IMG/VR virus record: IMGVR_UViG_2693429679_000007
Length of the DNA: 5,717 nt
Reading direction: 5' to 3' (one strand)
Origin: a virus
Taxonomy: Duplodnaviria; Heunggongvirae; Uroviricota; Caudoviricetes
Position numbers and translations under genes: made by a program. Positions 1 to 2,694 of this stretch are shown one piece after another; position 1 is the first letter of the stretch; the number at the start of each line of letters is the position of its first letter. The notes beneath the pieces were generated by a model, which saw only the letters and a list, made by a program, of their open reading frames with translations, made no database searches and was not told the origin of the DNA.

Positions 1-1781
1 ACGGAAAAAGACATCACCATTAAGGGCAAAACCACCTCGCAGTATCTGGTCTCGGTGGTGGTGGATAACCTGCCTCCGCGCCCGTTCAGTATCCGGATGC
101 GCAGGATGACACCGGACAGCACCACAGACCAGCTGCAGAACAAAACGCTCTGGTCGTCATACACCGAAATCATCGATGTGAAACAGTGCTACCCGAACAC
201 TGCACTGGTCGGCGTACAGGTGGACTCGGAGCAGTTCGGCAGCCAGCAGGTGAGTCGTAATTATCATCTTCGCGGGCGCATTCTGCAGGTGCCGTCGAAC
301 TATAACCCGCAGACGCGACAATACAGCGGTATCTGGGACGGAACGTTAAAACCAGCATACAGCAACAACATGGCCTGGTGTCTGTGGGATATGCTGACCC
401 ACCCGCGCTACGGCATGGGGAAACGTCTTGGTGCGGCGGATGTGGACAAATGGGCGCTGTATGTCATCGGCCAGTACTGCGACCAGTCAGTGCCGGACGG
501 CTTTGGCGGCACGGAGCCGCGCATCACCTGTAATGCGTACCTGACCACACAGCGCAAGGCGTGGGATGTGCTCAGTGATTTCTGCTCGGCGATGCGCTGT
601 ATGCCGGTATGGAACGGGCAGACGCTGACGTTCGTGCAGGACCGACAGTCGGATAAGGTGTGGGCCTATAACCGCAGTAATGTGGTGATGCCGGATGATG
701 GCGCGCCGTTCCGCTACAGTTTCAGCGCCCTGAAAGACCGCCATAATGCCGTTGAGGTGAACTGGATTGACCCGGATAACGGCTGGGAGACGGCGACAGA
801 GCTTGTGGAGGATACGCAGGCCATTGTCCGTTACGGTCGTAACGTCACGAAGATGGATGCCTTTGGCTGTACCAGCCGGGGGCAGGCACACCGCGCCGGG
901 CTGTGGCTGATTAAAACAGAACTGCTGGAAACGCAGACCGTGGACTTCAGCGTGGGCGCAGAAGGGCTTCGCCATGTGCCGGGCGATGTCATTGAAATCT
1001 GTGATGATGACTATGCGGGTATCAGCATCGGCGGGCGCGTGCTGGCGGTAAACAGCCAGACCCGGACGCTGACGCTCGACCGTGAAATCACGCTGCCATC
1101 CTCCGGTACCATGCTGATAAGCCTGGTTGACGGAAGTGGCAATCCGGTCAGCGTGGAGGTTCAGTCCGTCACCGACGGCGTGAAGGTGAAAGTGAGCCGT
1201 GTTCCTGACGGCGTTGCTGAATACAGCGTGTGGGGGCTGAAGCTGCCGACGTTGCGCCAGCGCCTGTTCCGCTGTGTGAGTATCCGTGAGAACGATGACG
1301 GCACGTATGCCATCACTGCCGTGCAGCATGTACCGGAAAAAGAAGCCATCGTGGATAACGGGGCGCACTTTGACGGCGACCAGAGCGGCACGGTGAATGG
1401 TGTCACGCCGCCAGCGGTGCAGCACCTGACTGCCGAAGTCACCGCAGACAGCGGGGAATATCAGGTGCTGGCGCGCTGGGACACGCCGAAGGTGGTGAAG
1501 GGGGTGAGCTTTATGCTTCGCCTGACCGTGGCAGCGGATGACGGCAGTGAGCGGCTGGTCAGCACGGCCCGGACGACGGAAACCACATACCGCTTCACGC
1601 AACTGGCGCTGGGACGGTACACGCTGACAGTCCGGGCGGTAAATGCCTGGGGACAGCAGGGCGATCCGGCGTCGGTATCGTTCAGGATTGCCGCACCGGT
1701 AGCACCGTCGCGGATTGAGCTGACGCCGGGCTATTTTCAGATAACTGCCACGCCGCATCTTGCGGTTTATGATCCGACGGT
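1..1781 (+). CDS. J: Lambdoid phage tail tip / host-specificity protein J (central tail fibre), internal fragment, allele 1; 5' end lies upstream of the window, 3' end cut at ambiguous base 1782
   Basis: Frame +1 is open from base 1 ([59 protein letters not shown]...); the track ORF 55..1806 is this frame starting at the first GTG. From memory, the translation matches phage lambda gpJ almost residue for residue. J homology ends at 1781; the last 8 codons of the track ORF (to the TGA at 1804-1806) are out-of-frame read-through into the next segment. Confidence 0.9.
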
Positions 1782-1782
1782 N

Positions 1783-2694
1783 CCTATAACCGCAGTAATG
1801 TGGTGATGCCGGATGATGGCGCGCCGTTCCGCTACAGTTTCAGCGCCCTGAAAGACCGCCATAATGCCGTTGAGGTGAACTGGATTGACCCGGATAACGG
1901 CTGGGAGACGGCGACAGAGCTTGTGGAGGATACGCAGGCCATTGTCCGTTACGGTCGTAACGTCACGAAGATGGATGCCTTTGGCTGTACCAGCCGGGGG
2001 CAGGCACACCGCGCCGGGCTGTGGCTGATTAAAACGGAACTGCTGGAGACGCAGACCGTGGATTTCAGCGTGGGTGCTGAAGGGCTTCGTCATGTACCGG
2101 GCGATGTCATTGAAATCTGCGATGATGACTATGCCGGTATCCGCACCGGCGGGCGCGTGCTGGCGGTGAACAGCCAGACCCGGACGCTGACGCTCGACCG
2201 TGAAATCACGCTGCCATCCTCCGGCACCACGCTGATAAGCCTGGTTGACGGGCAGGGGAATCCGGTCAGCGTGGAGGTCCAGTCCGTCACCGACGGCGTG
2301 AAGGTAAAAGTGAGCCGTGTTCCTGACGGTGTTGCTGAATACAGCGTGTGGGGGCTGAAGCTGCCGACGCTGCACCAGCGATTGTTCCGCTGCGTGAGTA
2401 TCCGTGAGAACGACGACGGCACGTATGCCATCACCGCCGTGCAGCATGTGCCGGAAAAAGAAGCCATCGTGGATAACGGGGCGCACTTTGACGGCGACCA
2501 GAGCGGCACGGTGAATGGTGTCACGCCGCCAGCGGTGCAGCACCTGACTGCCGAAGTCACCGCAGACAGCGGGGAATATCAGGTGCTGGCGCGCTGGGAC
2601 ACGCCGAAGGTGGTGAAGGGCGTGAGCTTCCTGCTCCGTCTGACCGTAACAGCGGATGACGGCAGTGAGCGGCTGGTCAGCACGGCCCGGACGA
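1783..2694 (+). CDS. J: Protein J internal fragment, allele 2 (homologous to window positions 665-1576), frame +3, bounded by ambiguous bases on both sides
   Basis: Track ORF 1800..2720 ([46 protein letters not shown]...) is the same J region as 667-1576 but diverged: by hand count about 37 nt differences in 912 bp, giving 7 amino-acid changes (IRTGGRV for ISIGGRV, SGTTLISLVDGQGNP for [21 protein letters not shown] for [18 protein letters not shown] for [12 protein letters not shown]). The offset to copy 1 is a constant 1118 bp with no indels. The ORF's apparent end at 2720 is produced by the N run and a frame change. Confidence 0.85.

Follow-up and report, generated by a model that had tools for sequence, protein, structure and literature searches.

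Fragments of gene J in the window

The window, i.e. the whole 5,717-nt stretch of DNA that was analysed, consists of four N-joined fragments on the plus strand, namely, A (1–1781), B (1783–2694), C (2701–4212) and D (4214–5717). Fragment A belongs to allele 1 of gene J, is read in frame 1 without stops and covers lambda J nt 445–2225 (aa 149–742); its lambda coordinates were taken from the alignment with phage J genes. A single N at 1782 joins A to fragment B of allele 2, and at this point the J coordinate steps back by 1117 nt and the frame passes from 1 to 3. Fragment B is the counterpart of A 665–1576 and corresponds to lambda J nt 1109–2020. The scaffold join NNNNNN at 2695–2700 leads from B back to allele 1 in fragment C, which is read in frame 2; positions 2701–3450 are an exact copy of A 1032–1781, and positions 3451–4212 extend allele 1 to about lambda J nt 2987. 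Another single N at 4213 joins C to fragment D of allele 2, which is read in frame 1; positions 4214–4483 are an exact copy of B 2425–2694, and positions 4484–5717 extend allele 2 into the C-terminal receptor-binding domain. The overlap of A and C (750 bp) and that of B and D (270 bp) were both free of differences, which assigns the former pair to allele 1 and the latter to allele 2. The successive frames 1, 3, 2 and 1 mean that the reading frame is broken at all three joins, and the rebuilt alleles (A+C and B+D) each form an open frame.

The product of both alleles is lambda gpJ, also called central tail fibre or tip attachment protein J. The translation of A+C matched gpJ of PDB 8iyk in phmmer (E=0, 1866 bits), with query residues 1–846 colinear with residues 149–994, and allele 1 differs by few substitutions from lambda gpJ (PDB 8iyk, 8xcg; NP_040600) over this range. 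The Pfam domain series FNIII-A_GpJ, Phage-tail_3, Ig_J, Ig_J_second and Phage_Tail_Tip was detected above the gathering score throughout and is common to lambda and the window alleles; Ig_GpJ_C was detected in allele 2 only, because allele 1 ends before that domain. At the DNA level, both alleles are 3–5% diverged from lambda J. Allele 2 departs from lambda by an alternative, longer central cassette (window about 4900–5290, compared with 3660–3960) and by a non-lambda C-terminal receptor-binding domain, and its full ORF of 3501 nt including the stop (3498 nt coding) resembles those of ev099, Ayreon and cdtI, as against 3399 nt. Identity in the central cassette falls to 27–36% with indels in the worst 150-column windows, and the ungapped identity between 3809–4108 and 5131–5430 is 76%. 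The gene order in phage relatives is K-I-J-lom-stf, with I upstream and lom or stf downstream of J in 14 phage relatives and in the closed-genome relatives; this order is that of the relatives, as the window itself contains J fragments only.

The window is therefore a draft-assembly scaffold in which overlapping stretches of two ordinary variants of J, the lambda tail-tip gene, alternate. The spacing of about 1.1 kb between the two copies is not a genomic arrangement, because it arises from four overlapping N-joined fragments with a frame break at every join. Four overlapping contigs of two J copies were strung together with Ns in the order of their J start positions, giving the succession of alleles 1, 2, 1 and 2. 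The same single-N, back-stepping J layout was found in other assemblies (L001/L099 and L102). Draft assemblies fail at lambdoid prophages (PMC4587872), and for short-read draft genomes a problem has been described in E. coli O157:H7 (PMC4587872) whereby repeats lead to the mis-scaffolding of multi-copy prophage genes; the window is similar in that overlapping paralogous J contigs were joined with minimal N gaps. We consider it likely that mis-scaffolded pieces of two ordinary J alleles, mosaic through lambdoid recombination, explain the window as a whole.

Divergence of the two alleles and recombination among J genes

The two copies at 665–1576 and 1783–2694 were aligned without gaps over 912 bp. 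The initial annotation had counted about 37 substitutions and roughly 96% identity, and the alignment gave exactly 37 differences (95.94% identity). A distance of about 4% is typical for any two J alleles. The uneven spread that had been described, with clusters near 917–1330 and 1503–1530 and identity over the first 250 bp or so and over 1381–1500, was also recovered: 30 differences fall in 918–1332 and 7 in 1503–1531, and there are none in 665–917 (253 bp), 1333–1502 (170 bp) or 1532–1576. The diverged block at 918–1332 on the plus strand (30 differences in 415 bp, 7.2%; B copy 2036–2450) has a dS of 0.25 and a dN of 0.022; over this block, A is identical to contigs L001 and L002, and the nearest panel relative of B is 9 differences away. 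The second identical block at 1333–1502 (plus strand; B copy 2451–2620) carries a haplotype that is also present in phages 21 and ev099. The short hyper-diverged block at 1503–1531 (plus strand; B copy 2621–2649) holds its 7 differences within 29 bp (24%), and both of its versions were found unchanged in other J alleles.

Purifying selection on the tail-tip body explains why the differences are mostly silent. Third codon positions account for 27 of the 37 differences, 28 codons are changed synonymously and 7 with replacement (S>R at 1024, I>T at 1027, M>T at 1111, S>Q at 1135, R>H at 1255, M>L at 1513 and A>T at 1531), in agreement with the earlier count of 7 replacements and mostly third-position changes. 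The Nei-Gojobori estimates were dS 0.139 and dN 0.0127, and the resulting dN/dS of 0.09 bears out the purifying selection on the tail-tip body that had been suggested. The spectrum comprises 28 transitions (T>C 11, C>T 6, G>A 6 and A>G 5) and 9 transversions.

The differences are not evenly distributed but clustered beyond chance. The probability of a longest identical run of at least 253 bp was 1–2e-4 (about 1e-4), whether the null was uniform or preserved codon positions. None of 1e5 permutations attained the combined length of the two longest runs, and the maximum chi-square test placed a breakpoint at 918 (P 0.013). Among panel pairs with 30–45 differences, 1.2% have an identical run of at least 253 bp. 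The explanation that the identical blocks are merely conserved sequence was rejected, given that diversity in 67 other J alleles is 2.5% in 665–917 and 3.7% in 1333–1502 and that, of allele pairs drawn at random from this panel, only 1.0% and 2.0%, respectively, are identical there.

Both alleles are represented elsewhere. Three or more other contigs (L097, L098 and L115) carry allele 2 (B+D) contiguously, N-free and at 100% identity, with the full J ORF of 3501 nt; for fragment B alone, identical copies are present in at least 8 other contigs. The 912 bp of A occur at 100% in contig L001. Fragment C matches the N-free contig L002 at 99.9% and annotated gpJ in closed E. coli genomes at 99.1%, and C and D each match annotated gpJ end to end in one piece at about 99%. 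The allele-1 backbone is present in the closed genome NCTC9082 and in the N-free contig L117, which are identical to it over 28–646 and 862–2357 except at site 1092. Allele 2 and the allele-1 backbone are thus real sequences, and the proposal of two distinct J alleles holds: both states at 33 of the 37 A/B sites segregate in other J genes of the panel. In the 5426 closed E. coli genomes, neither 912-bp haplotype was found exactly, the best matches being 99.3% for A and 98.0% for B.

The alternating blocks had been read as the signature of homologous exchange between related prophages, and the wider J family substantiates exchange among related lambdoid phages. In the 67-allele panel, 2927 of 5886 site pairs were incompatible in the four-gamete test, with at least 44 recombination events (Rm) within 912 bp, and a PHI-type test was significant (P<0.0005). 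Rm was 26 and 55% of site pairs were incompatible among 14 isolated phages; a PHI-type permutation test restricted to these phages did not reach significance (P=0.14), probably since incompatible site pairs are close to saturation whatever their distance. Sliding-window best matches showed that the nearest phage relative shifts along each allele: allele 2 is about 100% ev099-like only over lambda-J nt 1784–2540, and allele 1 is about 99–100% mEp460-like only from nt 2170. Patch-like exchanges of similar size were found among isolated single-copy phage genomes, and an allele-2-type patch lies within allele 1. The patchy divergence is therefore real and reflects the well-known recombination among lambda-like prophages, and recombination is demonstrated at the population level. 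Nearly all A/B differences are old polymorphisms that are combined in many ways in other J genes.

Intragenic mosaicism among lambdoid phages and Rad52-like recombination with prophages have been reported (PMC6379469), and passages of PMC6379469 and PMC4587872 attribute lambdoid mosaic evolution to homologous recombination (Juhala et al. 2000; De Paepe et al. 2014; Johansen et al. 2001). The window alleles likewise show sub-gene exchange, with near-identical blocks alternating with 5–25% diverged blocks, a changing nearest relative and pervasive four-gamete incompatibility. There is no substantive difference from this known mosaicism, and the window is a further example in a draft assembly in which phase is uncertain across identical stretches.

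The shared patch at 541–917

The first identical block is part of a longer shared patch on the plus strand. In A, positions 541–917 are identical to allele 2; the B copy of 665–917 lies at 1783–2035, and the upstream reach to 541, which brings the block to 377 bp, was established using allele-2 upstream sequence from other contigs. The closest relatives of allele 1 (L117 and the closed genome NCTC9082) differ from A at 7–10 sites within 647–861, and fragment A consists of an L117/NCTC9082-type backbone with an allele-2-type patch at 647–861. The NCTC9082-type bases in this interval are C at 647, A at 664, C at 720, A at 775, C at 777, C at 827 and T at 861, and allele-1-specific sites lie on either side of the patch, at 480–540 and 918–978. 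A triplet test found 10 consecutive allele-2-type sites among 86 informative sites (P<=1e-6). Allele 1 would thus carry an allele-2-type patch of 215–377 bp, at a place where the backbone in the closed genome has a different sequence.

Judged from sequence comparison, this patch may be a biological conversion tract and not a phase switch of the assembler, and these two readings have to be weighed against each other. The chance that both alleles are real but that their identity over 541–917 is an assembly artefact, with A a chimera and the patchiness exaggerated, falls not far short of even in our judgement. True allele 1 would then carry an NCTC9082/L117-type sequence at 647–861, and the assembly would have switched to allele-2 reads within the identical stretches of 106 bp (541–646) and 56 bp (862–917). 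This reading accords with the finding that no other contig matched the whole of fragment A at 100%, from its 5′ part through the patch to its 3′ part, only pieces of it being found, and that its backbone relatives, including the closed genome, all differ in 647–861. Contig L001 from a sister assembly shows two more allele-1/allele-2 hybrids, one switching in 862–917 and its second piece in 1051–1106, each an identical stretch of 56 bp, and hybrids that switch in such stretches are what a short-k assembler would yield. The window and several sister contigs are N-joined J tangles, so the assembler struggled here, in line with the documented failure of draft assemblies at lambdoid prophages (PMC4587872).

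The longest identical stretches are also favoured by real recombination, however, and the switch positions therefore do not discriminate between the two readings. Exchanges of like size occur in genomes of isolated phages with a single J copy, where chimeras of paralogs are impossible. The differences between two N-free J copies of one genome (L010 and L013, the single IMG/VR pair in the within-genome comparison) are likewise clustered, with 6 of 11 in 807–861. Even if the patch were an artefact, all 37 differences would still stand in 918–1531, as would the identical block of 170 bp. Tentatively, and with somewhat less than even confidence, the patch may be the product of a very recent real gene conversion between two co-resident lambdoid prophages, with L001 and similar contigs as further independent conversion products.

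Origin of the two alleles and significance

The two alleles most probably come from two lambdoid prophages of the same genome. The reading as paralogous copies in one genome is a reasonable one given their co-scaffolding and the multi-copy state of J: about 4600 of the 5426 closed E. coli genomes contain the gene, with a median of 2 places per genome and a maximum of 13. A mixed sample, such as a metagenome or a contaminated culture, in which each allele would come from its own strain or phage, is unlikely. A mixture would fit the lack of exact matches in the closed E. coli genomes and in GTDB representative genomes, in which an allele-2 40-mer had 0 matches; yet several J copies per genome are the norm, contig IMGVR_UViG_2700989365_000006 itself carries both allele types, and the closest relatives are IMG/VR contigs with 10-digit identifiers of the 25...–29... 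series, which we take to be genomes of isolates, metagenomes having identifiers of the form 3300....

Read literally, the window has four J segments arranged head to tail on the same strand, and these could be partial copies of J in tandem within a single prophage, e.g. silent cassettes for programmed tail-fibre variation. Such an arrangement is highly improbable, and a real tandem duplication or cassette array was rejected. Every junction is an N run with a broken frame, and the non-adjacent segments overlap at 100% (750 and 270 bp) and therefore assemble into two normal genes. The A–B junction, with any base allowed at 1782, and the C–D junction at 4213 each had 0 matches in the 2.9 M viral contigs of IMG/VR, a search in which the pattern N possibly does not match a stored N. 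The fragments map as single pieces within normal gpJ in closed genomes, each of 206 matching phage records has one J place, and allele 2 is known as a normal ORF of 3501 nt. Sequencing or consensus errors, or targeted mutagenesis by a diversity-generating retroelement (DGR), have practically no likelihood and were rejected: only the poor assembly quality speaks for them, against the third-position bias and low dN/dS, the segregation of both states at 33 of 37 sites in independent J genes, the recurrence of B at 100% in other contigs and, for a DGR variable/template repeat pair, a spectrum of transitions and transversions over all bases that is not confined to template adenines.

It is well established for this group that lambdoid tail genes are mosaic below the level of the gene, that E. 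coli genomes contain several J paralogs and that the tail-tip body evolves under purifying selection. The description of two J alleles with patchy, mostly silent divergence is accordingly correct but ordinary, and the phenomenon was already known. Its biological importance is small, and its practical value is one of caution. 'Tandem' readings of the window are an artefact of a mis-scaffolded paralog tangle, and allele phase is unreliable in these draft assemblies across identical stretches of at least 56 bp, the shortest switch stretch observed here. For inferences on recombination, closed genomes or isolated phages should be used. Should the patch at 541–917 be real, it is a clean, small example of a conversion tract for which both parental types are known, and if conversion is the true explanation, the strain lineage would offer a natural time series of ongoing prophage–prophage conversion within J.

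Two J alleles in a mis-scaffolded window

The window sequence represents two ordinary alleles of the phage lambda tail-tip gene J, which encodes gpJ. It is split by runs of N (1782, 2695-2700 and 4213) into four fragments, namely, A (1-1781, frame 1), B (1783-2694, frame 3), C (2701-4212, frame 2) and D (4214-5717, frame 1). A and C overlap over 750 bp (1032-1781 and 2701-3450) with 0 differences, as do B and D over 270 bp (2425-2694 and 4214-4483); thus, A+C join into a single sequence (allele 1, 2543 bp) and B+D into a second (allele 2, 2146 bp), each an open reading frame from end to end. 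Allele 1 was colinear with lambda gpJ residues 149-994 (PDB 8iyk; E=0), both alleles gave Pfam matches to the gpJ series of domains, with the C-terminal receptor-binding domain in allele 2, and C and D were each matched over their full length, in a single piece, by annotated gpJ of closed E. coli genomes (~99%). On the minus strand, long antisense ORFs of 363-423 aa lie opposite J (487-1758, 2579-3850 and 3850-4941); they are unsupported and most likely reflect the high GC content and codon bias of the J frame.

The initial annotation took the layout of the two copies at face value, and this part did not hold. The order of the fragments follows where each one starts along J, the reading frame is broken at each join, and the A|B and C|D junctions, with any base at the N, were absent among 2.9 million viral contigs. 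A single N followed by a back-step in J into a slightly different copy likewise occurs in the IMG/VR contigs L001/L099 and L102. Together with the exact overlaps, these results show that the tandem appearance is a scaffolding artefact of a multi-copy gene, and the N joins, zero-difference overlaps, frame breaks and absent junctions rule out a real tandem array of J copies. Scaffolding trouble with lambdoid prophages in draft E. coli genomes is documented (PMC4587872). Single-N joins were frequent in IMG/VR prophage contigs with neighbouring taxon identifiers (L001/L099, IMGVR_UViG_2700989365_000006; L102, IMGVR_UViG_2700989368_000009; L095, L101, L105, L106, L109 and L113); L001 and L102 carry back-stepping J fragments as in the window, and L001 has a 529-bp repeat (97%) spanning its N at 736. 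Such joins look like a pipeline-wide artefact, and many deposited prophage sequences may be affected.

Allele 2 is real, since B+D recur contiguous, N-free and at 100% in three other contigs (L097, L098 and L115), each with a complete J ORF of 3501 nt; B on its own was found at 100% in at least eight contigs. For allele 1, L001 has the 912 bp at 100%, and the N-free contig L002 has C at 99.9%. The allele 1 backbone is shared by L117, also N-free, and by the closed E. coli genome NCTC9082, the latter being the same as allele 1 over positions 28-646 and 862-2357, except at site 1092. The exact 912-bp haplotypes were absent from 5426 closed E. coli genomes (best 99.3% for A and 98.0% for B). The NCTC9082 copy (L119, NZ_LR134080.1 2591053-2594467), the nearest closed-genome copy to this backbone, carries the annotation of a pseudogene with a frameshift, and this prophage copy may thus be defective there. 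The paralogy proposed in the initial annotation is probable; a mixed sample is a possible but less likely source of both alleles, given that both allele types lie on one IMG/VR contig and that multi-copy J is the norm: ~4600 of the 5426 closed genomes had J-like sequence, in 2 places at the median and 13 at most.

Divergence between the alleles and recombination among J genes

In an ungapped comparison, 665-1576 and 1783-2694 (lambda J nt 1109-2020, aa 370-674; by Pfam coordinates, the end of Phage-tail_3, the next region and the first part of Ig_J) differed at 37 of 912 aligned bases (95.94% identity), and all counts of the initial annotation were correct. Thirty differences fall in 918-1332 and seven in 1503-1531, with none across 665-917, 1333-1502 and 1532-1576. 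The patchiness it described was borne out: the 253-bp identical run has P ~1-2e-4 under uniform or codon-position-preserving nulls, and the maximum chi-square breakpoint was 918 (P=0.013). The third codon position holds 27 of the 37 differences, which comprise 28 transitions and 9 transversions. Twenty-eight codon changes were synonymous and seven were replacements (S>R, I>T, M>T, S>Q, R>H, M>L and A>T), and the Nei-Gojobori estimates (dN 0.0127, dS 0.139, dN/dS 0.09) agree with the proposed purifying selection. DGR-type mutagenesis was excluded by a substitution spectrum that is not adenine-specific, and sequencing errors by the codon-position bias, the shared polymorphism and the replication of B in other contigs; the differences between the two alleles are thus genuine, as initially claimed.

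Among 67 other J alleles, both states segregated at 33 of the 37 sites, mostly at intermediate frequency, and four B states were private. Half of the informative site pairs failed the four-gamete test, the 912 bp gave a Hudson-Kaplan Rm of at least 44, and P was <0.0005 in a PHI-type permutation. Because draft contigs could be paralog chimeras, the tests were repeated on 14 isolated phage genomes with one J each, giving an Rm of 26 and 55% incompatible site pairs; the PHI-type statistic was not significant in this set (P=0.14), probably owing to near-saturated incompatibility at all distances. The best-matching phage changed along both alleles: allele 2 was ~100% ev099-like over lambda-J nt 1784-2540 and allele 1 99-100% mEp460-like from nt 2170 onward, in neither case upstream. 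The recombination reading of the initial annotation was therefore right in substance. The A/B distance of 37 is close to the panel median of 36, and only 1-2% of allele pairs were identical in 665-917 or 1333-1502, where background diversity was 2.5% and 3.7%, respectively. Hence, A and B are typical unrelated J alleles apart from patches of very recent common ancestry.

The shared patch in fragment A

Recovered upstream sequence of allele 2 showed 22 differences to A in 50-540 and became identical at 541, so the shared block spans 541-917 (377 bp). L117 and NCTC9082 match A on either side and differ from it at 10 and 7 sites, respectively, in 647-861. At the 86 sites separating L117 from allele 2, A agreed with L117 at 74 and with allele 2 at 12, ten of the latter being consecutive (P<=1e-6); A is therefore an NCTC9082/L117-type J with a 215-377 bp allele-2-type tract, flanked by identical stretches of 106 bp and 56 bp.

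An assembler switching between paralogs could also produce such a patch. In L001, the main copy changes from allele 2 (to 917) to allele 1 (from 918), and a second piece from allele 2 (to 1050) to allele 1 (from 1107), again within 56 identical bp, the longest such run of the diverged block. Several different hybrids occur in sister assemblies in which N-joined J tangles are also present, in keeping with phase-switching by the assembler. However, real recombination would prefer these stretches too, and a real tract, arising by conversion between co-resident prophages, is somewhat the more probable. The block at 665-917, central to the initial annotation, may accordingly be an assembly product; if so, ~5-6 differences would be present there instead of 0, and neither the 170-bp identical block nor the population-level conclusion would change.

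B begins one base past site 664, where A and allele 2 have G whereas L117, L002, L006 and NCTC9082 have A. L102 begins one base past site 861, and two further contigs, L101 (near 7273) and L107, terminate within 862-917. Fragment and contig ends (window 1783, L102 position 1, L101 and L107) thus adjoin sites separating the patch types, a hint that the source genomes hold one more J copy of the other patch type and that contigs were broken at graph branch points.

Downstream mosaicism and relation to known lambdoid phages

Alternative central cassettes occupy 3660-3990 in allele 1 (lambda/mEp460 type) and 4900-5290 in allele 2 (ev099/Chlobot type). The alignment contains indels and falls to 27-36% identity in its worst 150-column windows; 3809-4108 aligned ungapped to 5131-5430 gave 76%. 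Allele 2 has ~28 extra codons here, in what is predicted to be the tail-tip fibre (Pfam Phage_Tail_Tip), and the alleles converge again near 3990/5310. Mosaic boundaries within 665-2694 are all far weaker. In 4027-4210 (allele 1 positions 2358-2541), allele 1 departs from its backbone relatives L117, EC2 and NCTC9082 at the same 17 sites in 184 bp, yet phage mEp460 matches it at 99-100%, making this a second foreign tract. Allele 1 ends at 4212, just short of the receptor-binding domain. That domain in allele 2 (5533-5717; Pfam Ig_GpJ_C, E=7.6e-11) most resembles those of phages ev099 and Perceval (97%) and shares ~53% DNA identity with that of lambda, which suggests, from sequence likeness, a receptor specificity other than that of lambda.

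Sub-gene mosaicism is established in lambdoid phages (Juhala 2000 and De Paepe 2014, as cited in PMC6379469). The pair of alleles illustrates this mosaicism, and nothing in it differs from what is known.
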